NCBI GenBank assembly: GCA_046758445.1
Contig: JBHIAE010000041.1
Span: 1 to 25,469, forward strand
Direction of reading: 5' to 3'
DNA length: 25,469 nt
From: Candidatus Thorarchaeota archaeon
GTDB taxonomy: Archaea; Asgardarchaeota; Thorarchaeia; Thorarchaeales; Thorarchaeaceae
Both the position numbers and the translations under genes were made by a program. The notes beneath the pieces were generated by a model. It saw only the letters and a list, made by a program, of their open reading frames with translations, was not told the origin of the DNA and did not search any database. Position 1 is the first letter of the stretch. Every line of letters begins with the position of its first letter. Of the stretch, positions 468 through 15,030 are shown in pieces.

Positions 468-1385
468 TCACATTGGACTAATCTTCTCCAGAATCTTCTC
501 TAGCCAGATGTCTCCTTGGCGGCGGAACTTTGCGTTCGAGTAGCTGACGTAAGTACTAGTCGACTTCACAAAGGAGGCTTCTCCCACGCTTTCAGATACT
601 CTTTCAGCATCTCTGAGAGTATCAGTTACGAAGTTGGCAAACACAACTGGCTCCGATGCCGACACATATGGTTCCCAGAACTCCATGGTGAATTCTTTCG
701 ACAACCAATCAACCACATCTTGTGCAGAGACTTCGGACTCTTCATAGTGGATTCTAACGAGGAATTGTGTCTGCTCGCCCGTGCTCATGTTCCACCTTGT
801 TCTGAATAGAAAGGCTCCACTCTCGACAAGTTCTGCTATCGCTCTCCGGGCCCTCCTTGTTGAGATTCCAGCATTCCTTGCTACTTCCTGACTTGCCGTA
901 CGAGGATCCTTCCTGAGTTGCTTCAGAACTCTCAAGTGCAACTTTTTCAATTCTAGACTGTTTCCCTTCTCCCATAGAAGATTATGAATCTCGACTCTCT
1001 CAACTCCATCAAGCCCTCGAATATGCTGGCCCACGTCCGAGAGTTGTTCTAGACCGACGTACCATCCAATTGCATAGTATGTGCCACCCTTTGTGCTCAC
1101 TATCTTGCTCACATGATGGAAGACTGGTGTATTCCCGATTTGACTCATGAGCTCAAGTGAGTCCTCTGAACCGTCACATTGGACTAGTGCGAATACTAGA
1201 TTGGCATTCATCATGGCGAGGGAGGGCAGGACTCGAAATCCAAGAATGACTCCGCCGTCGAACAGCTTTTGGACTCTCTTCTTGACAGCATTAGCTGAAA
1301 CGCCGAGGTTGGATCCCAAATCCTGATAGGTTGTTCTACAGTTTGTGTTCAGCATCTGGATAATCTTCTTGTCGAATATGTCCAA
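468..1385 (-). CDS. Lrp/AsnC-family transcriptional regulator with duplicated HTH+RAM modules
   Basis: N-terminal 'MDIFDKKIIQML..NCRTTYQDLG..LGVSANAVKKRV' AsnC HTH and a second HTH 'LRKDPRTASQEVARNAGISTRRARRAI'. TTG start with GAGG upstream. Confidence 0.85.
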   Translation of the reverse strand: MDIFDKKIIQMLNTNCRTTYQDLGSNLGVSANAVKKRVQKLFDGGVILGFRVLPSLAMMNANLVFALVQCDGSEDSLELMSQIGNTPVFHHVSKIVSTKGGTYYAIGWYVGLEQLSDVGQHIRGLDGVERVEIHNLLWEKGNSLELKKLHLRVLKQLRKDPRTASQEVARNAGISTRRARRAIAELVESGAFLFRTRWNMSTGEQTQFLVRIHYEESEVSAQDVVDWLSKEFTMEFWEPYVSASEPVVFANFVTDTLRDAERVSESVGEASFVKSTSTYVSYSNAKFRRQGDIWLEKILEKISPM

Positions 1386-1566: not shown

Positions 1567-2490
1567 CTATGGCCACAGACCTTCTTTGGTCAACATTTCC
1601 TCAAGCCGGAGCTGCGTTAGAGGAGTGAGAATCGTAGCTGAATAGTAGATCAACGTGTTGAGCGCGGCCACACCAGAATACTCCCTCACTGCCCGAGTAA
1701 TCCCCTCAATCTCAAGCAGATGATCAACCATGAACACGCAAAACATCACCGGTTCAATCGCGGAAATATGCGAGTAGAAGTACTCCACTGGATATTCCTG
1801 GCGGAGTTTCTCCTCGATATAATCTGTTTTGGCCTCCTGAGAGTCTTACTCAATCTTCGCGATGAAGGCCATACTGTCCTCTGCATTTGGGTTCCAATAG
1901 AATGAGAAGTTGATAGATTCACTCTCAAGAAGATCATTGATGATTCTCCTGACCCTTCGTGTTGTCAGCCCCGAGTTTCTCGCGATGTCATTCACTGACA
2001 TCCTAGGGTCACGTAACAACCATGGCATCACGCGAAGTTGGAGGGAGCTCAATTCCATCTTTGAACCAAGATCGGCCATTGTAGGATGTATCTTCACGTC
2101 GATAACACCCTCAACCTTTCGAATGAAAGAACCAAGCTCAAGAAGCCTGCTAGCTCCAATGAAGTGAGCATGGAGGACGTAGTCGCCAGTTGTAAGTGGG
2201 AGTAGTACGTATATCATTGGATTGCCGCCCAGAATCTTAACCAACTGTCTATGATCTTGCCTGCCGTCAGTCTTCACCTCAATGAACGCAAACTGAGCGT
2301 CAATCATTGCAGGCATTATATCGAAAAGTCATCCCTGTATGGAACCGCTATCAACGAGCCTCTCAACTCGCTTCTTCGCCGCGTTTGCACTGACACCAAG
2401 TTTCTCACCTAGGTATTTGCAGGTGTTACGGCAGTTGGATCCGAGTTCCTGCCAGAGCTTCTTGTCAATCTCGTCCAACTTGATCTCCAC
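1567..2490 (-). pseudogene. Double-module Lrp/AsnC regulator interrupted by two in-frame stops (TGA 2331-2329, TAA 1848-1846)
   Basis: Manual translation from GTG 2490 gives MEIKLDEIDKKLWQELGSNCRNTCKYLGEKLGVSANAAKKRVERLVDSGSIQG*LFDIMPAMID...AKIE*DSQEAKTDYIEEKLRQEYPVEYF...WP*. All three pieces share one frame over 308 codons and are colinear with the 305- and 304-aa paralogs. Confidence 0.85.
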
Positions 2491-2664: not shown

Positions 2665-4113
2665 ATGGTGAAACCCATGAGAACGGGAGAAGAGTATCGC
2701 CAGAAGCTATTCGGAATGAAGCCGAACATTTTCATTGATGGACAGAAGGTCGGGCGTGATGACCCCCGAATGCAGGGCGTCATCAAAACAATGTTTCAGA
2801 CACTCGACAGGGTTCAGGAACCTGAATTCAAGGAGCTGCTTACTGCGAAGTCTCATGTTCTTGATGTACCTGTCAATAGATTCACTCACATCCACCAGAG
2901 TGTAGATGATCTCCTTCGTAAACAGGAGCTAACCAGGAAGATATGCCAGTACGCTGGAGGTTGCATCTTTCGATGCATGGGAAATGACGCTATGAACGCG
3001 CTGTCAATCATAACTCATCGCACAGAGTCGATGACTGGCCGCCCTTACCATCAAAGGTTCTTGGAACATCTCAAATACTGGCAAGAGAACGACATTGTAG
3101 GTTGCTGTGCACAGACTGATGTGAAGGGGGACAGAGCACTACGCCCTCACCAACAGGCCGATCCGGATCTATACCTGCGAGTCGTGGAGCACCGAGAGGA
3201 CGGGATTGTTGTCCGAGGGGCAAAGAATCACATCACGGCGGCGGCTGTCGCAGAGGAGATTGTAGTACTTCCGACGCGATTTCTCACTGAAGAAGAAGAC
3301 CAGTATGCAGTCGCCTTCTCAATTCCTGGTGACTGGGATGGCGTCAAGCTAGTGACGCGTGCATCGAATTTCACACGAGAACGGTTTTCCGCTCCCTATG
3401 GAGAGGGTGGTGATGTTGAGAACTTCATCATTTTCGATGACGTCTTCATACCCAACGACCGGATCTTTCTGAGTGGGCTTGAAGGAGAACACGCGTTTGG
3501 AGGATGGGCAGCCTTGTTGTTTGCTCTCTTCCACCGTCACAGCTACACAGGCTGCAAACCTGCCTCCACAGACATCATCATTGGATTCAGTTCCCTAGTG
3601 AGTGAGTACAGTGGGATTGAGGACAAGAAGCACGTTCAATCAAAGCTTGCCAGCCTGATCAGTGTTGGGGAACTTGTTTACGCCGCTGGCATCGCCGCCG
3701 CCTACAAGGCGTCGAAGGACGACTCGGGCACAATGATTCCGGACCCAATCTTCTGCAATGTTGGGCGAAAGCACGCAGGAAAGAACTACTATCATGAACT
3801 TGAAACACTCGCTGATCTTGCGGGTGGACTGCCCGCTACGCTGCCTCTTGAAAAGGACTTCTTCGACGAGACTATAGGACCATTTCTACAAAAGTACATC
3901 AAGCGAAAGGAGGGTGTTGCTTCTGAGGACATCTACAAGCTCTTTCGGGCACTCTCGGACAAGCTATGTTCCCGCATTGGAGGCGTGATGGCAGTAGCAG
4001 GACTTCATGGAGGCGGAAGCCCTCAGATGGAAGACGTTGCTATCCTTAAACAGTATGACCTAGATGAGAGGAAGAAGATTGCCAAGTTCCTAGCAGGTAT
4101 CTCTGACAGCTAG
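2665..4113 (+). CDS. abfD: 4-hydroxybutyryl-CoA dehydratase-like FAD/[4Fe-4S] protein (AbfD/HpaB family)
   Basis: CIFRC and HRHSYTGCK supply the Cys3His cluster ligands. Also 'AQTDVKGDR', 'VVRGAKNHIT' and 'HGGGSP'. Confidence 0.8.
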   Translation: MVKPMRTGEEYRQKLFGMKPNIFIDGQKVGRDDPRMQGVIKTMFQTLDRVQEPEFKELLTAKSHVLDVPVNRFTHIHQSVDDLLRKQELTRKICQYAGGCIFRCMGNDAMNALSIITHRTESMTGRPYHQRFLEHLKYWQENDIVGCCAQTDVKGDRALRPHQQADPDLYLRVVEHREDGIVVRGAKNHITAAAVAEEIVVLPTRFLTEEEDQYAVAFSIPGDWDGVKLVTRASNFTRERFSAPYGEGGDVENFIIFDDVFIPNDRIFLSGLEGEHAFGGWAALLFALFHRHSYTGCKPASTDIIIGFSSLVSEYSGIEDKKHVQSKLASLISVGELVYAAGIAAAYKASKDDSGTMIPDPIFCNVGRKHAGKNYYHELETLADLAGGLPATLPLEKDFFDETIGPFLQKYIKRKEGVASEDIYKLFRALSDKLCSRIGGVMAVAGLHGGGSPQMEDVAILKQYDLDERKKIAKFLAGISDS

Positions 4114-4149
4114 AGGTCTTCTACTAGGATATTGAGTATTCACAATCTA

Positions 4150-4195
4150 GAATGAAATAAAGAGAATGACGGGCAAAACGCTTGGAATGCCCGTC
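4150..4195 (-). terminator. Hairpin (GACGGGCA/TGCCCGTC, 4168-4195) plus U-rich tract downstream of the SSB gene
   Basis: 8-bp perfect stem. The minus strand continues ATTCTCTTTATTTCATT. Confidence 0.5.
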
Positions 4196-4244
4196 TTCAC
4201 AACTGTTGCCAGTTGTTGGAAATGGTCAATGAAGTTGGTCAACA

Positions 4245-4775
4245 CTAGTATCTGCGTCGTCTGTCACGGCCACGATAGCCGCCACCGCCACGACGATCTC
4301 TGCCGCCATATCCGCCTCCTCTTCCGCCATAGCCACCGCTTCGTCCGCCGTAACCGCCACCATATCCGCCGCCACCGTAGTTTCTGCGACGACGTCGATG
4401 ATCCTCATGCTCTTCTGCAGACATGTCAACTTCCATGTTGACTTCTTCAATGGCTTCTTCAGCCTGAGCAAGCTCTCCGTACCTGCCTATGTTGAGTCGG
4501 AGGTTTCCTCTGAACAGACCAGTGTAGCCGTTCTTCAGTGTGTAGGTTGTTCCGGCAGACACTGAGTCAATCGTGTCATCCCATAGTGGTACCTGAACTG
4601 TCCCAGTTGAGTCGCCAACTACCGCATCTAATACTCTGTGGGTCGCCCCGTCGCTTCGTGACGAAACCTCACGTTCTTCACCCATCTCAATTACCTTGAA
4701 GGCAATTGTGACATTCTTCATTCTTGGCCGCAACTCGGCCACTGTAGCCTCAATAGGCTCTCTGTCGTAACTCAT
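4245..4775 (-). CDS. ssb: Single-OB-fold ssDNA-binding protein (crenarchaeal SSB/RPA-like) with Gly/Arg/Tyr-rich tail
   Basis: 'VAELRPRMKNVTIAFKV...VGDSTGTVQVPLWD...KNGYTGLFRGNLRLNIGRYG' is a typical OB fold. Start reassigned to ATG 4775 (MSYDREP). Confidence 0.85.
   Translation of the reverse strand: MSYDREPIEATVAELRPRMKNVTIAFKVIEMGEEREVSSRSDGATHRVLDAVVGDSTGTVQVPLWDDTIDSVSAGTTYTLKNGYTGLFRGNLRLNIGRYGELAQAEEAIEEVNMEVDMSAEEHEDHRRRRRNYGGGGYGGGYGGRSGGYGGRGGGYGGRDRRGGGGYRGRDRRRRY
4248..4400 (-). repeat. Low-complexity GGY/RGG coding repeats in the SSB tail
   Basis: YGGGGYGGGYGGRSGGYGGRGGGYGGRDRRGGGGYRGRDRRRRY. Confidence 0.9.
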
Positions 4776-4935
4776 CTTGTATTCTCTCGCTTCTGCGAAT
4801 TGCAGGTTGCTCAAAACTAGCGTGTTCCTCTGTTGGTGCTGCATTACGGGAATGACCCCTCACTGGACCACGTCTGGGAAGGCGCCTATTGCTTGTGTAC
4901 CTGCGGTCTTCTGTCGAAAACAGACGCTTAAGATA

Positions 4936-5577
4936 TTATGCATTTGAACGATTCGTGGCAGAATCAGACGTTTCACGTGCGTTTCGAAGCTCCAGTGTGT
5001 TGTAGGACAGAAGTCCAACGAACAAGAGAGCACCAAATACTGTGAACCACTCCACTATGGGTCCACCGACTGTAAACTGTAGACCTAGGCTCGAGAAATT
5101 GACCGCCAGGCCATAGAGTGCTATTGGCTTGATGAACCTGGGATGCAAGAGAAGAGCCAGATTGACAAGGATAAACACAAAGAAGTTCAGCAAGAAGAAC
5201 GTGGAAGATGCCGTCATATGGGAACTCCCTTGATCTTCAGAGAAGACGCCAATCATGATCAGTGCCACTGCCGAGGCAATGCCTATGATCTGTCCGCCAA
5301 TCATCAGGACTTTACCAAGCCTTCCTTCAGTATACCAAACATACATTCCAATGTAGAACGGAATGAGCGCAATTCCTGTGAGGATGCAGCCAATATTGTA
5401 GAAGTAGGCACCAAATGGGCTATAGTTGAAGTTGCCGAGTCTGCTTAGGTAGTGAGTGACAGGGCCAAAGGGCTCAGGGTAGAACGCCCAGGAGGTGAAC
5501 GTGAAGGCGCAATAGAGCAAGATCACCAGACCACCGCTTAGACCTGTCAGTGGCCATCTTGCGAGTCTTTCTTTCAT
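4936..5577 (-). CDS. Integral membrane protein, DUF998-like
   Basis: About 5-6 hydrophobic helices, with 'YLSRLG' loop motif, 'IGVFSED..SH' and 'EW'. Confidence 0.6.
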   Translation of the reverse strand: MKERLARWPLTGLSGGLVILLYCAFTFTSWAFYPEPFGPVTHYLSRLGNFNYSPFGAYFYNIGCILTGIALIPFYIGMYVWYTEGRLGKVLMIGGQIIGIASAVALIMIGVFSEDQGSSHMTASSTFFLLNFFVFILVNLALLLHPRFIKPIALYGLAVNFSSLGLQFTVGGPIVEWFTVFGALLFVGLLSYNTLELRNARETSDSATNRSNA

Positions 5578-5654: not shown

Positions 5655-7451
5655 TTAGAATAATCGCGAGAAGGCGTCAGGCGCCTCCGTCGATTTCACC
5701 TTTTCATCCTTCTCGTCCCAAGCCACTGCCAAGGTTCGTCTTCGTTCTTTAAGCTCAGTGCCATCATCTGAATCGCCCATCACCCTCTCGATAATCTGCA
5801 ATGGATCGAACCACACGTCCAGCTCCACTATGTGGTCCGGGGTTCTTCTCTTGGAAATCGCATTCACTGCTATCTCATACTGTGCCACAGCGTCGTACAT
5901 TCTTCCCGCGTGTTCTTCTTCTTCAAAGAGTTCAAGGATAATCTCTCGAATAGACTCCATGAATGATACTCGGTCTGCCCGGACGGACTCAGCCGTTGGT
6001 GGTTCGAGACGACTGACACTGGCAACCAATTGTTTTGGTAGTTTGTCACCCAAATGGCTGAATGCCACGTTCAAACTGCAGGTCATTGCTGCCTGGATCA
6101 TCTCTCCTATAAAGACGAAAGTGAGCGCCTGTTTCCTTGATATTGATTTGGCAGGGATGTAGAAATACGCTGGAAAGATTAGTGGATGTTCTTGCATGAA
6201 CGATCTCAGATTTGTCCAGTTCGCGGGGATATCAGAGCTACCCGGACTTCCGTACTCGTCATAGACTAGCAGGTCTTTGAACTCCTCAAAGAGTCTTGAA
6301 CCCGGCTCAGGTGTCAACAGGTGGATTTGGATTCGGACTTTGTTTAGATCATGCGCCTTGCTCTTGAAGATCCAAGAGAAGAGTGCCTCAATGTCTTCCT
6401 CTCTTTCATCGGGCAGTCCTATGATGAATGAGAGTGTGCACCTCAAATCTAGCTCTACAATGGCACCTACGGTTTCTATCAGTCTACTTAGGTCGAGTCG
6501 TTTCCGTATTATCTTCTGCATCCGCTCTGTTCCGACCTCAATCCCTAGGAAGATTCCGAAGCATCCCGCGTCCCGCATCGTCCTCAGCAGAACTGCATCC
6601 ACAGTGTCTAATCGGCCGCTACATCCCCAACTCGCCCTCGGCTCATGTTGTCCAAGGGCTTCACAAATCCTTTCGACGTAGTCACGACTGAAAGTGAAGA
6701 GATCGTGAGAGAATGATATGTGCGACCGAGGAAGATGATTCTGAATGAGAGTCATTTCTTCTAGGACCCGGTCGACTGATTTGACTCTGAACTTCCTCTT
6801 GAAGTAGTTAGAAGTTGAACAGAATATGCAGTTATAGGGACAGCCCCTTCCCACCTCCAAGTGGACTGCGTTCTCTTCGTCATGAGGCTCAAGTTGACTC
6901 TTTTCATAGAGAGGAACCGGAAGACTATCCAAGTCTCTAATTGGCTCGGGCCATCCATTGTCTATTATCTGGTTTCCACCGCGAATCACCAATCCGGGAA
7001 TGATTGGAACCTTATCATCGACTCTCAGCGATTCTATGAAATCAGGAAATGCAACATCAGCCTCTCCGCGGATAATGGAGTCAAGATGATTGAAGGCCTC
7101 TAGAGTTTCTACCGCACAGAATGAAACGCCAGGGCCACCCATAATAATGTGCGTATCTGGAAGTCGCTCCTTGACGCGCCTTGACACCTCAATCGCAATG
7201 GCCAGGTTATTGGACATTGTGGAGAAGCCCAAGACATCGGGCTTTGAGGAAACAAAGATATCCACTATTCGCTCCAGTGCAGATTCTAGGTCGTGTTCGA
7301 CTAGCTTCCCGTGCTCAACGAGATCTAGAACCGAGCAATCAATACCTCGGCACTCAAGGGCTGCCGCGAGGGCAAGTACACCCAGGCACCGGTGTAACGG
7401 GACACGATGACCAACAGACATCTGATGTGTAGCGGCGAGAACCACTCTCAT
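5655..7451 (-). CDS. Cobalamin-binding radical SAM enzyme (class B methyltransferase-like) with C-terminal extension
   Basis: N-terminal B12 domain ('PDVLGFSTM', 'IIMGGP', 'RGEAD'), CxxxCxxC 'RGCPYNCIFC', 'GIEVG' and 'FIIGLPDE'. SD AGGAG upstream. Confidence 0.9.
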   Translation of the reverse strand: MRVVLAATHQMSVGHRVPLHRCLGVLALAAALECRGIDCSVLDLVEHGKLVEHDLESALERIVDIFVSSKPDVLGFSTMSNNLAIAIEVSRRVKERLPDTHIIMGGPGVSFCAVETLEAFNHLDSIIRGEADVAFPDFIESLRVDDKVPIIPGLVIRGGNQIIDNGWPEPIRDLDSLPVPLYEKSQLEPHDEENAVHLEVGRGCPYNCIFCSTSNYFKRKFRVKSVDRVLEEMTLIQNHLPRSHISFSHDLFTFSRDYVERICEALGQHEPRASWGCSGRLDTVDAVLLRTMRDAGCFGIFLGIEVGTERMQKIIRKRLDLSRLIETVGAIVELDLRCTLSFIIGLPDEREEDIEALFSWIFKSKAHDLNKVRIQIHLLTPEPGSRLFEEFKDLLVYDEYGSPGSSDIPANWTNLRSFMQEHPLIFPAYFYIPAKSISRKQALTFVFIGEMIQAAMTCSLNVAFSHLGDKLPKQLVASVSRLEPPTAESVRADRVSFMESIREIILELFEEEEHAGRMYDAVAQYEIAVNAISKRRTPDHIVELDVWFDPLQIIERVMGDSDDGTELKERRRTLAVAWDEKDEKVKSTEAPDAFSRLF

Positions 7452-7590
7452 TGAATCGACTCCTGAAGCAGCATCTTCATGGAGAGCGGCTTGACTTGGT
7501 AAACGGTCTCAAAGATGGCTTCAATAGCGCAACGTCATACTTTGTGACTCCTCTCAAATGTTTCTTGAGTTGACGATGATTGATGCGCTA

Positions 7591-7920
7591 CTATCTGTAG
7601 CCTGCGTCCTCTGGTCCAAAGTCTCTGACGAAATAATCGATTGCCTCATTGAATTCATCAAAGTACGCGTCCTTGAGCTCCGATACTTTGATGTCATCCA
7701 ACTTCGCCCCGACCACCTTGAGGACATTTTCCAGGGACGTTTTCTCCGCAGGCAGCAATCTGTAGTTGTACTCTGCGAGTGCCTTCTCATTGATTTCGCT
7801 GTGATTGATCAATACTTTCTGACGAAACTCAGAATCCAATATCAACCGATACGCCACAACTTGCTGTACATTCTTGAAGAGGCCGATTCTCTTCCTAATA
7901 GGTCTGGTAGGAACCTTCAT
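7591..7920 (-). CDS. Small protein with NHLP/Os1348-clan leader-like motif; putative RiPP precursor
   Basis: 'VQQVVAYRLILDSEFRQKVL...EKALAEYNYRLLPAE' resembles the NHLP pattern R...D.EFR..L...AL.E...L...E. Strong SD GGAGGT and a TATA box support a real gene. Confidence 0.55.
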   Translation of the reverse strand: MKVPTRPIRKRIGLFKNVQQVVAYRLILDSEFRQKVLINHSEINEKALAEYNYRLLPAEKTSLENVLKVVGAKLDDIKVSELKDAYFDEFNEAIDYFVRDFGPEDAGYR

Positions 7921-7973
7921 TTACCTCCAATCTCCCGAGTGATAACCTCGAATCAGATGAGTTACTGAGGTTC

Positions 7974-7982
7974 TATATAAAA
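7974..7982 (-). promoter_or_regulatory. TATA box (TTTTATATA) for the precursor/radical SAM cassette
   Basis: Consensus-like archaeal TATA about 54 nt upstream of ATG 7920, leaving room for a short SD-containing leader. Confidence 0.6.
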
Positions 7983-8162
7983 CCCGTCTATGAGGTTTGG
8001 CATTTGAACTATGGACGAGATTTCGACTTAACCTGTCAGCAAGGATAGATACCTCTAAGTAGACCTCCAGACTTCGAGTCTAACCTCCCCAACCACTACT
8101 TACAGAAGATTATTCTTGTGGATTGTACATCTCATATAGAAGAGCCCAAGCGTGTGGAGAAC

Positions 8163-9722
8163 ATGAAGCCACTAGGCACCGTCACGATGCACTATGACTT
8201 CGTAGATGGCCAGGAGAGAGAAGTCCTCATATCCATTATGAGTGAGGCTACAAACTACCAAGACTTTGTAGTTCGTTTGGGAAAGCACATTCAATTCAAA
8301 GATGCCACGCCAGTCCTCGCTCATATCGCGGCGTGGCACGCGTGGGAACTTCGTGAGTCAGAAGTGACCGAATCAATAGCAAAGGAGTTCGGAGACCATC
8401 CAATTGTGAGACCATGGACCTATCCCCTTCGAAGCAGAGGGGACAGGCTCTCAATTCAGGACGAGGTTGCGAGTGCTGTTGAGAGTGCGCTGGCGACAAA
8501 CCCTGCGAAATGGCTTAGAATGGAGCTCCTGATTCTGAAAGCGTATATTCTCATACTCACCCCACAAGGGAGTTCAGCTCTGGATGAAGCAAAGGCCTTG
8601 CTCGAAGAGAATCCTGAGCTTCGTTGCTATTTCCCTCATGTGTGTCATATAGATGCGAGGATAAAGTGGCAAGAAGCAGACCTCAATAATGCGCTAAGAA
8701 CATGCGACCAGGGCATTGACGCCGCGAGGGAACTAGACAATGTATATGAAACTGCACGGCTCGTTGCTTGGCGAGGAATTCTTACCTCTAGTTTCCAGCC
8801 CAGGGAGGCATTAGCATATCACGAAGAGGCCTACAATCTCGCAACCTCACTTGGCGATCAGTTTCTGATGGCTGCAGTCTTGATAGAAATGGGCTATGTG
8901 TCAGTAATCTTGGGCGAATTCGACCTGGCCCTGAAATACCTCCAGAAAGGCACGAGCGTATATACTCCTCAAGAGGGTCCGACTGACCAGCACGCAGTTG
9001 CTTTGTCTCTAATAGAATTTGATCTTGGTCACTTTGATGAGGCTCTCACTTGGGCCAACTGGGCTCTTGAAAAGCATCGTGATGTAGGATCCGAAGGGGA
9101 CGTGTGGACAGTATGCGCCATGACTCTAGCGCTTACTGCTTTAGGAAGGCTCGAAGAGGCCAGCTTGCGCCTTGACACCGCTCGCAAACTTGCTTTTGAG
9201 AGTGGGCAAGAACCTGATATGGCCTTCTACTACTATGCATCTGGTAACTACGAAGTAGGCTTGGGTAACCTGGAAACTGGGCTCCAGCTTGTGGAAGACG
9301 CTCTTGTCATATTCGAACGTCAGGGTGACCGAGCCTTTGTAAACCGATGTCTTCACACTCTTGCGCAACTTGAGTTGAAACTACTGAGGGAACGAAATGG
9401 CAAACCAATCGCACCACCATCCAGGTCGTGGATGAGGAGGCTTGAACTTCACGGTCGCGACAACAAGCTACCTGGATTCATCCTTCAACACGCTCTACTT
9501 CAAGCAGACTACTGGCTCATGGAGAAGGATCCGGAGGCGGCGAGGGAAACTCTTGTTCGTGCCCTTGACCACGGACACTCGCCAGGTGTCAAGTCGCTCA
9601 AAGATAAGATTGAAGAGAAGATTAAGCAGATTGACATGGAGAACGGAGAGGCAAGGTCGAATACGGTAACCAAGTTCGAAGATGTGGACAAGAAGAAAGG
9701 ACAACGAAGGCAAGGATTATGA
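8163..9722 (+). CDS. Tetratricopeptide-repeat (alpha-solenoid) protein
   Basis: Repeated helices such as 'MGYVSVILGEFDLALKYLQKG' and 'DLGHFDEALTWANWAL'. Start moved to ATG 8163 (MKPLGT) behind GTGGAG; the ORF track start is 8118. Confidence 0.75.
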   Translation: MKPLGTVTMHYDFVDGQEREVLISIMSEATNYQDFVVRLGKHIQFKDATPVLAHIAAWHAWELRESEVTESIAKEFGDHPIVRPWTYPLRSRGDRLSIQDEVASAVESALATNPAKWLRMELLILKAYILILTPQGSSALDEAKALLEENPELRCYFPHVCHIDARIKWQEADLNNALRTCDQGIDAARELDNVYETARLVAWRGILTSSFQPREALAYHEEAYNLATSLGDQFLMAAVLIEMGYVSVILGEFDLALKYLQKGTSVYTPQEGPTDQHAVALSLIEFDLGHFDEALTWANWALEKHRDVGSEGDVWTVCAMTLALTALGRLEEASLRLDTARKLAFESGQEPDMAFYYYASGNYEVGLGNLETGLQLVEDALVIFERQGDRAFVNRCLHTLAQLELKLLRERNGKPIAPPSRSWMRRLELHGRDNKLPGFILQHALLQADYWLMEKDPEAARETLVRALDHGHSPGVKSLKDKIEEKIKQIDMENGEARSNTVTKFEDVDKKKGQRRQGL

Positions 9723-9794: not shown

Positions 9795-10709
9795 ATGGAC
9801 GACCTGGACAAGCGCATCATCCTAGAATTAGATGCAAACTGCAGAGCATCGTACCAGTCATTGGCCCTCAAACTTGGCATGACTGCAAACGCCATCAAGA
9901 AGCGCGTCAACAGACTATTGGAAACGGGTCTAATCGAGAGGTTTGTTGTAGGACTCTCTCTAGAAATGAATGGCACGGACATGGTCATTGCGTTAGTTCG
10001 AACGGACGGATCGGAGTTCTCTAGGGAGTTCATCGATCAGATTGGTCATAGGCCTGAAGTGATGCAGGTAAGTCCTGTAGCTTGTGGTGTTGGAAGTCTA
10101 TACTTCGTCTTTGCAGAAGCTGTTGTTCCACGAGGACTCTCGGATCTCGGGAGATTCCTTCGAGGCCTAGAGTCCGTCAGCGATGTGGAGATTCATGTTC
10201 TGCTTTATCCGAGAGGGAAGAAAGTCGAGTTGACAAAGACCCACAAGAAGGTCTTGAGGGGTCTCTTGTACGATCCACGCATGACTGTCACCGAGATGAC
10301 GAAGAGAATAGGCCTGTCAGCAAGGAGAATCAGAAGGGCACTACAAGAGCTGCAGGATGGCGGTGGCGTGAATCTTGCCGTATGGTGGTACTTGGGTGCA
10401 GCTAGTCTAACTGAGGTCATTATTAGAATTGAATGGGATGATTCAAAGGTCACAGCTCATTCCGTTGTTGATTGGTTGAGAGAAGAGTATCCTCTCGAGT
10501 TTTGGTCGCCATTTGTCTCAGCTACCACGGCGACAGTCTTTGCGAGATTCGTGGTTGAAGACCTCGAGAAAGCCGAGATGATACTACGGAACATCAGGAA
10601 GGGCCCGTTCGTGGTATCCGTTGCTTCATTGGTCTTCTACTCTAGCCATGTCTATCCTTGGCCAGGTACTACCGCGTTGGAGAAACTTCTCGATGAAGCA
10701 GGTCTATAG
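9795..10709 (+). CDS. Double-module Lrp/AsnC-family regulator
   Basis: 'MDDLDKRIILELDANCRASYQSLA..LGMTANAIKKRV' and a second HTH 'YDPRMTVTEMTKRIGLSARRIRR'. Confidence 0.85.
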   Translation: MDDLDKRIILELDANCRASYQSLALKLGMTANAIKKRVNRLLETGLIERFVVGLSLEMNGTDMVIALVRTDGSEFSREFIDQIGHRPEVMQVSPVACGVGSLYFVFAEAVVPRGLSDLGRFLRGLESVSDVEIHVLLYPRGKKVELTKTHKKVLRGLLYDPRMTVTEMTKRIGLSARRIRRALQELQDGGGVNLAVWWYLGAASLTEVIIRIEWDDSKVTAHSVVDWLREEYPLEFWSPFVSATTATVFARFVVEDLEKAEMILRNIRKGPFVVSVASLVFYSSHVYPWPGTTALEKLLDEAGL

Positions 10710-10773
10710 AGGATTCAGTGAGAATTGACCCTGTTTATCTATAGAAAGCCCTACTCTCCTTTGTTTCGTAGAC

Positions 10774-10789
10774 GTGCACATATGTGCAC
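10774..10789. repeat. Perfect 16-bp palindrome GTGCACATATGTGCAC
   Basis: Read directly from the sequence; lies between two convergent genes. Confidence 0.85.
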
Positions 10790-10841
10790 CAATAATCTCC
10801 GACTGGCGCACCTGAAAACGACACGCCTCATAATGTGCCCT

Positions 10842-11846
10842 CTATCCAAGAAGACTTACTCTCTGTCCCAGACCCTTCTCCTTTGCAATCGAGTATACTA
10901 TGTTTGCTGCAGCGATGTCTTGCACAGACAGGCCAGTGGCATCAAAGAGGGTTATCTCGTCGTCGTCTTCACGTCCAACCTTGTCGCCGTTAAGAATCTC
11001 TCCTATCTCAGCGTGCACATCTTTCTCGTTGATGATACCTAGGGCGAATGCGTGCTGAAGCTCTCCAATATGCCTGCATTGAGCAAGGCTGTCCGCGACA
11101 ATCTTGGAAACCCGTTTCATAATCATTGGGTCAAGCTCTTGTTTGCCTGGTCCGTCCGCGCCTATCGCGTTAATGTGGAGACCTTCGCCAATAGAGTCTG
11201 CATTAATGAGCGCCTTTCTTGATGGAGTGACTGTGACGAGAATATCGGCGTCTGCAACTACATCCGGTGGAGAGTCAACAGTCTGGACATCAGCTCCAAG
11301 TTTCTGCCTCATCTCCTTCGCGTACTGTTTCGCTCTTGCGCTTTCGATGTCCCACACTTTGATTCTCTCTATGTTGAACAACTCGGCCAGAGCAAGTATC
11401 TGCATTCTACCCTGAGTCCCAGCACCCACTACGCCCACCTGAGAGGAATCCTTCCGGGCAAGAACATCTGCTGCCACTGCTCCAGCCGCACCAGTCCTGT
11501 ACGCTGTGATGTAGGTGCCGTCCATTATTGCCAAGGGCATGCTAGTCTTCAGGTCCATCAGCACAATGACGGCCACACCTGGGGGCAAGCCCAGATTCTC
11601 GTTGTCATAGAAGCCCGAGGCAATCTTTGTACCGATGAGTCCAAAGTCTTCGACGTAGCCTGACTTGATGTCTACCTCGCCTCTGTATTGATGTACATCC
11701 AAGTGCTGTACGGGTGGCATCTGTGTACGGCCTCTGGCGAATGCGGAATAGGCGGTTCGAACTGCTTCAATGGCTTTGCTCATAGGTAAGTGCTTCTGGA
11801 CCTCGCTCTGCGAGATTAGAATCACATCATCCAACGTTGACGTCAC
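10842..11846 (-). CDS. Ornithine cyclodeaminase/mu-crystallin family protein (archaeal alanine dehydrogenase or ketimine reductase-like)
   Basis: 'ITAYRTGAAGAVA', Rossmann 'GVVGAGTQG', 'HINAIGADGPGKQELD' and 'FDATGLSVQD'. Confidence 0.9.
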   Translation of the reverse strand: MTSTLDDVILISQSEVQKHLPMSKAIEAVRTAYSAFARGRTQMPPVQHLDVHQYRGEVDIKSGYVEDFGLIGTKIASGFYDNENLGLPPGVAVIVLMDLKTSMPLAIMDGTYITAYRTGAAGAVAADVLARKDSSQVGVVGAGTQGRMQILALAELFNIERIKVWDIESARAKQYAKEMRQKLGADVQTVDSPPDVVADADILVTVTPSRKALINADSIGEGLHINAIGADGPGKQELDPMIMKRVSKIVADSLAQCRHIGELQHAFALGIINEKDVHAEIGEILNGDKVGREDDDEITLFDATGLSVQDIAAANIVYSIAKEKGLGQRVSLLG

Positions 11847-11868
11847 CTCTTGTCAAACTCTCAACTCC

Positions 11869-12999
11869 CTACTTGATCGTCTGAAGCAGCTCGTCCAAAC
11901 GAGAAAGGCCGGCCTTGAGATGTTCTTCTTCATATCCAAAGCCGATCCGAATGTAGTTCTCCATTCCAAAGTGCTCACCAGGGATGATTAGCAGACTCTT
12001 TTCCTTCAACAGGCGGTCTACAAGCTCGAGCGAGCTAATTGGAAGGTTATGCTTTGGGAAACAGATGGACGCAGCCCTTGGAGCTACATAGTCGAAGATT
12101 TCGTTTCTCTCTTCCAGCCACCCTCTCATCACATTCCAATGACCCTTGACGATTCTGCTGGTTCTCTCTAGAATCTTCTCTCGCATCTCAGGCTGAAGCG
12201 CGATTGTTGCAAGCATGTCGCTCAGTTTTGTCGGACATATGGAAGTGTAGTCTGAATAGGACCAGAGGTCTGTCGCGTGAGGCTTCATGGACGTGACGAC
12301 CCAGCCGAGCCTCAAACCGGGCAGGCCATAGGCTTTGGACAGGCTGTTTGTGACCAGCACCTTTTCATAATAGTCAAACATAGTGGGCGTCCTCGGTCCT
12401 TCTAGCTCGGCCCCTTGGTATATCTCGTCAGATAGGATCCAGACACCAGCGTCAGCTGAAATGTCAGCGATTGTCTTGAGATGTTCCGAACCCAAGGTGG
12501 CCCCAGTTGGATTGTTAGGGTTGCAGATGGTTATCGCAGCCGTCTTCCTTGAAACAGCTTCCTTTAGTCCCTCCATATCCGGGACCCATTCATCCCTCTC
12601 CATCTTCAGATAGAAGGGAATCACCGACCCCCCGAGTCCCTTGGTAACTCCGTAGATCTGCATGTAGTTGGGGAGCATCATCACGATTTCTTTAGCCGTG
12701 TCATGTTCATGCAAAAGATTCCAGACAGTGATGAAATTCGCCTCAGCGCCTCCATTGGTGACTACCACGTTCTCTGCGTCTGCACCCTTGTACATGCTTG
12801 CTATGGCTTCTCTCAAGAGAATTGTTCCGTTTGTCTGTGAGTATGCAAGTTTGGTGTCAAGGATCTCTCTTCGCTCGTTCTCGTCTGGAATCAGATAGGA
12901 TACTGTAAGAGGCTCAACGCCACTCTCTGTGAGGTTGATATCTACGACATGTTCCCACTCGGACTGAATCCTCTCCAATTCAAAAGGCTCAAGCTTCAT
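11869..12999 (-). CDS. PLP-dependent class I/II aminotransferase
   Basis: 'CNPNNPTG', 'SDEIY' and PLP-lysine motif 'SLSKAYGLPGLRLGW'. Confidence 0.92.
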   Translation of the reverse strand: MKLEPFELERIQSEWEHVVDINLTESGVEPLTVSYLIPDENERREILDTKLAYSQTNGTILLREAIASMYKGADAENVVVTNGGAEANFITVWNLLHEHDTAKEIVMMLPNYMQIYGVTKGLGGSVIPFYLKMERDEWVPDMEGLKEAVSRKTAAITICNPNNPTGATLGSEHLKTIADISADAGVWILSDEIYQGAELEGPRTPTMFDYYEKVLVTNSLSKAYGLPGLRLGWVVTSMKPHATDLWSYSDYTSICPTKLSDMLATIALQPEMREKILERTSRIVKGHWNVMRGWLEERNEIFDYVAPRAASICFPKHNLPISSLELVDRLLKEKSLLIIPGEHFGMENYIRIGFGYEEEHLKAGLSRLDELLQTIK

Positions 13000-13131
13000 T
13001 TGTCACACCAACATTCCTCAGACACGGAACAATCGGATGTCTAACAGAATAGGGCAGTCCAGTTCCTAGCTAATTAAGACACCGGAATCTCGTCGACCTT
13101 GAGAATAGGAGATCGAACCGCACTCAACGTT

Positions 13132-15030
13132 CTAGTTGGAAGATTGACCTGGGTCATTCTCAAAACTAGTGGGAGGTATACAATCACCGTATCTTCCCTG
13201 AGCTTCAAGAAGCCTCTTCCGTTGGTCCTCCATGAGAGTATACAGCAGATCTGGCGCATCTGCCACACGTTCGCGATACTCTTTCTCGATTCGGTCTAAC
13301 TTCGCTAGAAGCTCCGGTACTCTTGTTGTGAACTGCTCATTGTACTGTTCAAGTGTACACTCCTTATTCAGATGCTCCTGAAACAGCTGAGCAAGGTCGT
13401 CATATCTCGGAATCAAACCGGTCGGAGTCGTGACGACTTCGGCCTCACAGTTGACTCTCAAGTCCATCCACTGAAGCCACACGCGTTTGTCTTCTTTCCC
13501 ATTCAGGTAGTCACCGTTTCTATCCTTCAGGAAGTAGTTTACGCTGAAGATCCGAGGTGTTCTATCAAGTGATTCACCGAAATCGAGATGGTTCTGGATG
13601 TACTTTCCTAGAGGAATTGAGATGAAGTCCATGTTTGAGAAAGCTTGGAACTTTCGGATACCGCTGGGGCCAAGGGTGGCTGCAGTGGACTCCGACTCTA
13701 GGCTCGCCCCCATTGTGATTACACCGTGCGCCCAGTCAAAGGACTCTTGGACGGGAACCCATGTGTCGGGGTCTCTTCCCCCATAGATGAAAGCGCTAAC
13801 GGCAACACCGTTTGGGTCTTCAAGTGTCTTGTCCACATTTGGAAGCCCCTCGAGACCTATCGTGTATCGTGCGTTCTTGTGAGCGTACGGAATCTCTTCA
13901 CCCTTAGCATCCTTCTTTCCTTTGAACCAATCACCCGAAAAGTTCACTCCGCTCGTTGGCGGTTCACGTCCATCGAAGAGCCAGAAGGGAACGCCTTCGT
14001 CATTCACCAAGACATTCGAAAATATGACGGGCTGATGCGAGTGCAGAACCTCCCAGATGATTGGGTCATCCTTCTCACTGACTGACCTGATTATGCCGAA
14101 TATCCCACGTTCTACGTTGACAGCTCGAGCTCTTCCATCCACGTTTCTAATGTAGGCTAAGTCATCCCCCACAATGCTCCCGCCAGGAATCATTGATGTG
14201 CTTGTCTTCCCGCAGCCTGAGGGATAGGCCCCTACTAGGTAGGTCTTTCGTTGGCCAGGACCATGAATGGCCATCAAGAACATATGCTCAGCTAGCCAAC
14301 CTTCTCGATCAGCCTTCCTTATCGCAAGGCGCAGAGCTAGCTTCTTGAGACCAATTGTGTTTCCCGCATACTGTGTGTTATAGCTATAAACGGTGTTCTC
14401 CTTGTAGTCTATGGAAACCCCCCGTCGTTTCCAGTTGGTACTCACAGAGTGCATGAGTTTCCCTGAGGAGTGAAGCATCCATAGTATCTCCGCATCTGGT
14501 GGGAGCCTCCGGAAGTAGTCGTAGCCACGTCGATAGAGAATATCCTCGCTATGAGCTACATAGAAGGAGTCTGTAATCTGAACGCATGGGATTGAGAACT
14601 CGGAGTCACGAGGACCAAGAGAGAAGAACCGGACAACCATCTTCTTGTTTTCCATGCTACCCTTGAGTCGTTGTTTGACTAGCTTGAGTCCTTCGTCGCG
14701 GTCCATCTGAAGTAGCTGATCTCCAAGTGATTCGCCTTTTGGAACGAGGTACATAGTCTTCTCTTTGTCTCGCGCTTGGTCGTGTAGTCCGTCAAAGTGG
14801 ACAGTATGTGTTGGAACTGCTAGTGTTGTTTCTTCCCCTCTTGCAATTGCCGTTCTTCGGATGTATTCCACATCCATCCTGCTGTCATCGCAGATGAAGA
14901 CCTTCATCGGCTCGCAGAGTTCAATTGCGTCTGCTACAAACTCATGTACGCGCTTGTTTGGAATGATGAGTAGCTTCCTTAGATTCGCATCAGTGAGGGT
15001 TGACTCCAGGATGGTCATGCAATGGTTCAA
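13132..15030 (-). CDS. pckG: Phosphoenolpyruvate carboxykinase (GTP)
   Basis: 'YAGNTIGLKK..LR', 'WLAEHM', P-loop 'PSGCGKTS', 'VGDDLA', 'HKNARY' and 'YGGR'. TTG start with GGGGTG SD; alternative ATG at 15018. Confidence 0.93.
   Translation of the reverse strand: MNHCMTILESTLTDANLRKLLIIPNKRVHEFVADAIELCEPMKVFICDDSRMDVEYIRRTAIARGEETTLAVPTHTVHFDGLHDQARDKEKTMYLVPKGESLGDQLLQMDRDEGLKLVKQRLKGSMENKKMVVRFFSLGPRDSEFSIPCVQITDSFYVAHSEDILYRRGYDYFRRLPPDAEILWMLHSSGKLMHSVSTNWKRRGVSIDYKENTVYSYNTQYAGNTIGLKKLALRLAIRKADREGWLAEHMFLMAIHGPGQRKTYLVGAYPSGCGKTSTSMIPGGSIVGDDLAYIRNVDGRARAVNVERGIFGIIRSVSEKDDPIIWEVLHSHQPVIFSNVLVNDEGVPFWLFDGREPPTSGVNFSGDWFKGKKDAKGEEIPYAHKNARYTIGLEGLPNVDKTLEDPNGVAVSAFIYGGRDPDTWVPVQESFDWAHGVITMGASLESESTAATLGPSGIRKFQAFSNMDFISIPLGKYIQNHLDFGESLDRTPRIFSVNYFLKDRNGDYLNGKEDKRVWLQWMDLRVNCEAEVVTTPTGLIPRYDDLAQLFQEHLNKECTLEQYNEQFTTRVPELLAKLDRIEKEYRERVADAPDLLYTLMEDQRKRLLEAQGRYGDCIPPTSFENDPGQSSN

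Follow-up and report, generated by a model that had tools for sequence, protein, structure and literature searches.

A putative RiPP-type modification module in a Thorarchaeota archaeon, pairing a precursor with an NHLP-like leader and a cobalamin-binding radical SAM enzyme

Leader-guided tailoring by radical S-adenosylmethionine enzymes (rSAMs) is an established principle in the biosynthesis of peptides that are synthesized ribosomally and then modified post-translationally (RiPPs). ApyD, a cobalamin (B12)-dependent rSAM that contains a RiPP recognition element (RRE), acts on the penultimate Tyr of its precursor ApyA, adding a methyl group at the C-beta (PMC10635010). In TglI, an N-terminal helical domain is followed by a C-terminal RRE that binds the substrate peptide, and deletion of the RRE abolishes binding (PMC10880893), while NGO1945 is the structural prototype of the DUF2063 plus RRE partner proteins of oxidative enzymes dependent on multinuclear non-heme iron (MNIO enzymes; PMC12452194). 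Here we describe a 25,469-nt stretch of DNA from a Candidatus Thorarchaeota archaeon (contig JBHIAE010000041.1 of assembly GCA_046758445.1; hereafter the window), in which open reading frames (ORFs) for a 109-aa protein (7591-7920) and a 598-aa B12-binding rSAM (5655-7451) both lie on the minus strand, next to a divergently transcribed tetratricopeptide repeat (TPR) gene. We suggest that the three genes probably make up a RiPP-type module for peptide or protein modification, consisting of a precursor, a leader-guided B12-rSAM that most likely modifies the tail of that precursor by C-methylation, and the TPR protein.

Most of the full-length homologues of the enzyme (35-49% identity) come from Thorarchaeota, and a few come from bacteria. 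At all 14 of the 14 loci with usable upstream DNA, one or two co-oriented ORFs of 79-111 aa lie directly upstream of the rSAM gene and share a leader, and the rSAM homologues thus keep the kind of small upstream ORF that an earlier, sequence-only reading of the window (the first-pass annotation) had taken for a precursor gene. The loci counted, under our own numbering, are the window together with L001; L002 (=L022); L003; L004 (Lernaella); L005 (=L013); L006 (=L020, Leptospirales); L007; L015, L016 and L017; L018 (Aminicenantes); L019 (Acidobacteria); L021; and genome G031 (L099), where a leader ORF whose last residues are TDW lies ahead of a B12-binding N-terminus cut by the contig end. L014 was left out of the count, as its contig ends 326 nt upstream of the rSAM and only a 5'-truncated ORF is visible. 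The lineages with linkage are Thorarchaeota and four bacterial phyla, to which the Lernaella, Leptospirales, Aminicenantes and Acidobacteria loci belong. Out of 7,176 small ORFs at 92 loci, a hidden Markov model (HMM) of the leader matched the linked ones only, and it found no match in eleven stretches bearing TPR paralogues. Nor did it match anything beside rSAMs of more distant clades (Methanosarcina, Paenibacillus, Chlorobium and others, at no more than 36% identity), and the linkage is therefore specific to this rSAM clade. An HMM of the full-length precursor gained one member only (L017) beyond its seeds. In a tree of 65 rSAMs obtained by a quick IQ-TREE search, the leader-linked enzymes group together in a single clade (100% support) that sits on a long stem, and all Thorarchaeota plus Lernaella fall into a 95% subclade. 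Conserved adjacency across lineages, the generic mark of a RiPP precursor and its maturase, is what these loci display.

The enzyme is present in 8 of 87 species-level Thorarchaeia genomes and 3 of 17 genera, in addition to the contig-cut copy of G031, and relatives at ~40% identity occur in several bacterial phyla. Such a patchy spread is typical of accessory cassettes, and the cassette has probably been exchanged between lineages.

The precursor gene (P0001; 7591-7920, minus strand) has a Shine-Dalgarno-like GGAGGT at 7928-7923, read directly 2 nt ahead of its ATG at 7920, and, ~58 nt upstream of that ATG, the string TTTTATATA (7982-7974, minus strand), which is TATA-box-like by its resemblance to the consensus. 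Between the two genes lies a 139-nt spacer (7452-7590), with GGAG at 7463-7460, 8 nt ahead of the rSAM ATG, and with neither an intrinsic terminator nor a significant RNA fold (z -1.37). The signals, peptide strings and spacing quoted in the first-pass annotation are all present and exact, and its co-oriented pair of a 109-aa gene upstream of a 598-aa B12-rSAM gene is confirmed, both on the minus strand. The precursor is single-copy in its own genome and has orthologues in two related metagenome-assembled genomes, P0002 (66% identity, L001) and P0123 (~47%, L005), with the gene order kept. Differences from the L001 orthologue are distributed over the three codon positions of the minus frame as 19/21/43. 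Synonymous and non-synonymous codon changes number 8 and 3 in residues 8-37 and 5 and 1 in residues 86-105, as against 8 and 24 in between (38-85). The small ORF is a genuine gene, and constraint on it is bipartite, with the leader and the tail held and the linker free, which is a precursor-like mode of evolution.

The predicted leader recognition segment (residues 8-37; 7810-7899, minus strand) contains the motif YRLILDSEFRQKVL and aligns to the NF038399 and PF14407 models. NF038399, which describes the Os1348 family of the nitrile hydratase-like leader peptide (NHLP) clan, was matched by 8 of 15 family ORFs, and its cutoff was reached by those of L004 (43.4 bits) and L007 (40.7 bits); PF14407 (Frankia_peptide) was matched by 3 of the 15 (best E 7e-7), and TIGR04509 and the Nif11 leader model by one ORF each. 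When the profile of the window clade was compared by hhalign with a profile of the other twelve upstream ORFs, the leader helices aligned with 91.5% probability (E 8.5e-7), and Phe32 is invariant in 15 of 15 family members. Searches of the PDB with the family leader profile gave matches that are weak and no more than consistent with this assignment, with Os1348 (6lk7) best at E 0.15 and nitrile hydratase alpha subunits next at E 0.7-0.9. The Atlas yielded two leads, a cluster labelled 'NHLP-related RiPP peptide' (0.88) and, by structure, a Franean1_4349 cluster. Judged by these profile comparisons, the small protein is a member of a family whose predicted N-terminal helical leader is homologous to that of the Os1348/NHLP clan.

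The opposite end of the protein is the predicted core, that is, the tail expected to be modified (residues 86-109; 7594-7665, minus strand), with the C-terminal end DFGPEDAGYR. Across the family, the C-terminal regions that correspond to it in position differ completely from locus to locus. Trp falls within the last two residues of 8 of the 16 distinct precursors (examples include DPQW, DPRW, ITDW, FTDW, PASW, which occurs twice, VQCW and PAWI), as compared with Trp so placed in 1.8% of ORFs of at least 200 aa at the same loci (binomial p ~1e-10, or ~1e-7 with related pairs merged), and an aromatic residue is found in the last five positions of 12 of 16 precursors versus a background of 25% (p 4e-5). 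In the window clade, the tails read AGYR, ARYRE or DGFKG after a segment, IDYFVRDFGPE, that is invariant in the three orthologues, and the tail of the window protein itself closes with Gly-Tyr-Arg. Variable tails with aromatic ends appear to resemble RiPP cores, of which these features are typical. Because ApyD acts on a penultimate Tyr, the near-C-terminal aromatic residue would by analogy be the target of modification, which in the window protein would be Tyr108.

The enzyme (P0003, 598 aa; 5655-7451, minus strand) was assigned from Pfam, NCBIfam and an AlphaFold2 model. It has a cobalamin-binding domain at residues 23-138 (7038-7385; PF02310, 64.8 bits, cutoff 32.1) and a radical SAM core at residues 199-361 (6369-6857; PF04055, 78.1 bits, cutoff 29.5), and the three Cys of its CxxxCxxC motif (C204/C208/C211; 6819-6842) are invariant in 18 homologues. 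By these domain matches, the enzyme is assigned to the class B (cobalamin-binding) rSAMs, with the defining features of the class present. Its best NCBIfam match by far is NF050148 (ApyD; E 4.4e-93, 312.8 bits, residues 17-519 on model positions 20-513 of 645), and the next scores are those of HpnJ (125 bits), BchE (118) and rSAM_ocin_1 (112). The lipid-type models stay below their curated cutoffs (TIGR04072, ladder rSAM, 83 versus 360; HpnJ 125 versus 578; HpnR 101 versus 650) and MiaB/RimO score ~20 bits; at these scores, the enzyme matches neither the lipid/hopanoid nor the tRNA-modifying families. The first-pass annotation had held that grouping with lipid enzymes or tRNA-modifying clades would speak against its reading, and the enzyme is placed outside both, with 313 bits for ApyD far above any lipid or tRNA model. 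An AlphaFold2 model built from 18 homologues has a predicted local distance difference test score (pLDDT) of 90.8, and its nearest solved folds are MgmA, AprD4, TokK, CysS, OxsB and TsrM, with MgmA, a protein Gln C-methylase, as the top Foldseek match of the whole enzyme. The enzyme is single-copy in its genome, where paralogues score at most 159 bits and lie on other contigs, and there is no second rSAM gene in the window. At the syntenic locus L001 (a 4697-nt contig of GCA_012974965.1, from a close relative) the rSAM is split into 237 and 241 aa, which is an assembly artefact and not a pseudogene, because several runs of N break both the TPR and the rSAM frames.

Some bacterial loci have more than one such enzyme. 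Two or three tandem paralogous B12-rSAM genes accompany each precursor at L006 (3120-8688), L007 (4260-9938) and L018 (4195-7866), as compared with one in Thorarchaeota, and multi-step tailoring is therefore suggested in the bacteria. In Lernaella (L004, 2330-5004), a gene for a non-B12 radical SAM protein (363 aa) stands between the precursor and the B12-rSAM, and an FGE-sulfatase-like gene is divergent.

The first-pass annotation had proposed a peptide-modification system made of a precursor and an rSAM. That much is supported, and what it had missed is that the enzyme carries a TglI/DUF2063-like recognition domain of its own. This C-terminal domain (residues 432-598, 167 residues; 5658-6158, minus strand) is predicted to recognise the precursor. 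Modelled in isolation, it has a pLDDT of 90.3, and its only high-probability Foldseek matches are the 8hi7/8hci TglHI chains of ~269 residues (TM 0.58, probability 1.0), followed by 3dee, NGO1945. We take the matched 8hi7/8hci chain to be TglI, because NGO1945 (DUF2063) is matched along with it and the fold consists of a helical domain plus three strands, with no TIM barrel. VIA-align against structure representatives gave Z 10.7 for TglI (154 of 167 residues aligned) and Z 10.2 for 3dee (NGO1945/DUF2063), then a gap down to Z 6.0, where MbnC (7dz9_C, 130 aligned) appears among unrelated helical proteins, with a second MbnC chain, 7tcr_C, at Z 5.5; the C-terminal domains of TokK and CysS align at Z ~5 only. 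No Pfam DUF2063 (PF09836) signature was found anywhere in the enzyme at E up to 0.1, and many structural relatives of DUF2063 proteins are likewise without it (PMC12452194). A predicted complex of the rSAM and the precursor, run without controls, gave ipSAE values of 0.00, 0.64 and 0.00, which speak neither for nor against binding. The fold matches of the domain support the presence of a fused domain of the precursor-recognition type in the enzyme.

The system had also been called minimal, a description that has to be given up, since in Thorarchaeota the module has a conserved third member, the TPR gene (8118-9722, plus strand; 534 aa, MalT-like, divergently transcribed). Its full-length orthologues (E 1e-124 to 1e-143) adjoin the precursor in L002, L003, L005, L015, L016 and L017, and in L021 (G019) the adjacent TPR protein is a weaker match at 140 bits, whereas the genes beyond the TPR gene differ between Thorarchaeota loci. 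The protein belongs to a large and much expanded Thorarchaeial family of ~500-aa TPR paralogues. Of 87 genomes, 58 encode such paralogues, as many as 14 per genome, and tandem runs of three or four genes are frequent, examples of which are seen in G044:C48 (L101 351-6350), G036:C9 (L104 808-5485) and G033:C33 (L100 5110-9805). Apart from the weaker case of L021, only the top TPR orthogroup among the rSAM-carrying genomes (at least 409 bits) adjoins the rSAM; the other Thorarchaeial paralogues that we inspected lie beside further TPR genes, with no leader ORF or rSAM partner. In predicted structure, the TPR protein is similar to TPR sensor modules found in signalling proteins of the AAA_16/STAND, cyclase and kinase types.

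A kinase-AAA_16 signalling protein is encoded divergently beside the precursor at four bacterial loci. Those of L006 (1-1810), L007 (1-3850) and L019 (175-5460) are Pkinase-AAA_16-GAF-SpoIIE proteins of ~1,750 aa, with a TPR_CHK1 match in L006 and L019, and at L018 (1-3551) the ORF is cut by the locus end past its kinase and AAA_16 domains. L007 encodes an additional Guanylate_cyc-AAA_16-TPR protein (10449-14639). The recurrence of TPR or signalling proteins beside the precursor suggests a regulatory or sensing partner, a function that the recurrence does not prove.

The RiPP-like reading offered by the first-pass annotation is supported by the conserved linkage, the leader homology, the class of the enzyme and the fold of its recognition domain. 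In the mechanism that we favour, the NHLP/Os1348-clan leader, with its key motif around YRLILDSEFR, would probably be bound by enzyme residues 432-598, and the enzyme would most likely act on the C-terminal tail, residues ~86-109. The likeliest reaction would be C-methylation of an unactivated carbon, with Tyr108 as the favoured site by analogy with the action of ApyD on ApyA. The TPR protein could serve the module as a partner, a regulator or a receptor. Without a linked protease or exporter, the product may stay in the form of a modified small protein.

Several observations weigh against this mechanism. The window protein itself scores only 16 bits against PF14407 (E 0.015; gathering cutoff 48) and 15.3 bits against NF038399 (E 0.016; curated cutoff 40), and of the first-pass expectation that it would be found by NHLP-clan profiles it is the leader homology at the level of the family that held, not the direct matches, which stay below the cutoffs. 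An exhaustive profile search with the small protein over ~1.8 billion representative proteins returned only two true orthologues. The tail is kept within the window clade, unlike classic hypervariable cores, and it ends in one to two residues beyond a Tyr or Phe, versus the terminal Trp that is common elsewhere in the family. No Gly-Gly-type or other cleavage motif occurs in the small protein, and the whole 25-kb window encodes neither a peptidase nor an ABC exporter. The enzyme reaches 312.8 of the 750 bits that the ApyD cutoff demands and is therefore no ApyD equivalog, and class B rSAMs also catalyse reactions other than methylation.

A third match in the same profile search, P0124, was judged spurious, as it is a low-complexity repeat protein of 1,574 aa. 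The first-pass annotation had pointed to the lack of Gly-Gly, Cys and an adjacent peptidase or exporter; all of this is real for the window, where the small protein has zero Cys, zero Gly-Gly and a single Gly-Ala that is lost in the orthologues, and the wider precursor family likewise lacks the Gly-Gly site together with the protease and exporter. In the related loci, too, we saw neither a peptidase nor an ABC exporter, save for a weak, sub-threshold Peptidase_C25-like match in L021. This 464-aa protein (4052-5446; E 6e-5, just below the cutoff), encoded divergently upstream of the precursor, is the sole protease-like neighbour in the family.

Several other explanations deserve consideration. 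The same precursor-enzyme pair may carry out a different chemistry: the enzyme might cross-link or cyclise the tail at its C-terminal aromatic residue, contract a ring, or perform some other reaction of the B12-rSAM type. The sequence matches of the enzyme include the non-methylases AprD4, BchE and HpnJ, its structural neighbours include AprD4 and OxsB, its similarity to ApyD amounts to only 313 bits in a clade on a long stem, and the two or three paralogous enzymes per precursor at bacterial loci could serve a multi-step pathway. The best-scoring characterised relative, ApyD, is nevertheless a C-methyltransferase, and most known peptide-acting class B rSAMs that have been characterised are methyltransferases, which leaves a different chemistry rather unlikely in our view. 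A similarly low chance attaches to a more elaborate proposal, in which the tail-modified protein would be a signal or ligand read by the linked MalT-like TPR sensor, and the module a RiPP-based signalling circuit common to Asgard archaea and bacteria, built around a modified C-terminal aromatic residue. The basis for this proposal is that the TPR protein stands alone in Thorarchaeota while in bacteria a TPR module lies within ~1,750-aa kinase-STAND-TPR-GAF-PP2C proteins encoded divergently beside the pair.

It is less plausible still that the small protein is no substrate at all and instead a regulatory or accessory helical protein, with a small molecule, a lipid or some other protein, such as the TPR protein, as the substrate of the rSAM. 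The sub-threshold NHLP matches of the window protein, the missing protease and exporter, weak matches of the leader profile to small helical regulators such as Hha and YmoA, and the presence of the small-molecule enzymes TokK, CysS and AprD4 among the solved structural neighbours would fit such a role. This is outweighed, in our judgement, by a linkage that spans two domains of life and holds at all 14 loci while other neighbours change, by the TglI/DUF2063-like precursor-recognition fold fused to the enzyme, by tails that are variable yet aromatic-ended as is typical of cores, and by the low lipid rSAM scores (for TIGR04072, 83 bits versus 360), all of which make a non-substrate role quite improbable. 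Least credible is a chance juxtaposition or annotation artefact with a non-coding small ORF, in spite of an overlapping 136-aa ORF on the plus strand and the low confidence of the Atlas model of the small protein (pLDDT 0.59). The third-codon-position enrichment in the minus frame, the syntenic orthologues, the TATA-like and Shine-Dalgarno-like sequences in their proper places and the family-wide linkage all speak for a gene, and the linkage detected by the leader HMM, the codon-position pattern and the pattern of synonymous and non-synonymous changes effectively refute a non-coding ORF.

Around the module, the gene downstream of the rSAM (4936-5577) encodes a 213-aa polytopic membrane protein with a weak Frag1/DRAM/Sfk1 match (E 0.01). 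Small membrane-anchored proteins with similar N-terminal transmembrane segments are encoded near the rSAM at the Thorarchaeota loci L022 (8098-8424), L016 (8111-8599) and L021 (2550-2849), and the one at L016 contains repeated DFRLDPGTVRS units. Further away in the window, 4245-4844 (minus strand) encodes an Ssb-like OB-fold protein (PF21473, E 5e-13) with a low-complexity C-terminal tail, rich in Gly, Arg and Tyr, that ends in RDRRRRY. Two paralogous regulators of ~305 aa with an AsnC-type helix-turn-helix (HTH) are encoded at 9795-10709 (plus strand) and 468-1385 (minus strand), the first with a second HTH region at residues 143-192, and a shorter ORF at 1846-2316 (minus strand) has an HTH_24 match. 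The 9795-10709 gene adjoins the TPR gene in L005 too. PADLOC returned only generic rSAM (PDC-M51A, E 3e-18) and generic TPR matches, and a defence system is unsupported.

In the literature that we searched, with incomplete coverage, we came across no RiPP or RiPP-like pathway of Asgard archaea that has been characterised by experiment, and no description of this module under Asgard or Thorarchaeota RiPPs, Franean1_4349, or NHLP plus B12-rSAM in archaea. The module could reveal new peptide chemistry, and its two or three genes are a compact, testable case. If the proposed mechanism is true, the TglI/DUF2063 recognition fold extends beyond MNIO systems. The module could also show whether modified proteins act within the cell, as signals or cofactors, as opposed to being secreted as antibiotics.

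Compared with known systems, the locus shares something with each of several and coincides with none; on the features tested, membership failed for ApyD, for the proteusins and for the classic Gly-Gly-cleaved NHLP systems. With the Os1348/NHLP-clan precursors (NF038399, PF14407, TIGR04509; Haft et al., 2010, PMC2887384; PDB 6lk7), it has in common the N-terminal helical leader, the motif hydrophobic-x-R-hydrophobic-hydrophobic-x-D-x-x-F-R and a maturase gene adjoining the precursor, and two family members reach the NF038399 cutoff. It differs from them in that the window protein is sub-threshold and has neither a Gly-Gly or Gly-Ala cleavage site nor a core rich in Cys, Ser or Thr, and the C39-peptidase ABC exporter of the NHLP/Nif11 RiPPs described by Haft et al. 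(2010) is absent from the window and the related loci. Proteusins (PoyA with PoyB/PoyC and the epimerase PoyD) likewise combine an NHLP-type leader with class B rSAM tailoring. However, the window lacks an rSAM epimerase, a dehydratase and an N-methyltransferase, the core is short, and the enzyme scores 112 bits against TIGR03975 (rSAM_ocin_1), whose cutoff is 282. The archaeal methyl-coenzyme M reductase methylases MgmA (QCMT) and Mmp10 are also archaeal class B rSAMs and C-methylate a protein substrate, but their target is a large folded enzyme and no precursor with a leader is encoded beside them, and the score against TIGR04014 is 93 bits versus a cutoff of 360.

ApyD, the best-matching family at 313 bits, is a better analogue than the PoyB/PoyC pair put forward by the first-pass annotation. 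The ApyD/ApyA system (the aminopyruvatide pathway of Burkholderia thailandensis; NF050148) shares with the window a cobalamin-dependent rSAM, a ribosomal precursor and a peptide-recognition domain, and ApyA and the window precursor both have a penultimate Tyr. The last ~130 positions of the ApyD model are unmatched by the window enzyme, however, and the MNIO ApyH with its partner ApyI, and the P450 and ApyS methyltransferase that usually accompany them, have no counterpart in the window. ApyA-type precursors end in Asp, whereas the window precursor is of the NHLP type, unrelated to ApyA, and ends in GYR; here, moreover, the host is an archaeon and a TPR gene is linked. With TglI, MbnC and DUF2063 (NGO1945), residues 432-598 share a fold in which a three-stranded RRE-type part comes after a helical domain. 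Sequence similarity to them is undetectable (8-12% identity), and those proteins stand alone beside an MNIO enzyme where the present domain is fused to a B12-rSAM. What distinguishes the module is the combination: free of any protease or exporter, it brings together a B12-rSAM with a fused TglI-like domain and a linked TPR gene in an archaeal host.

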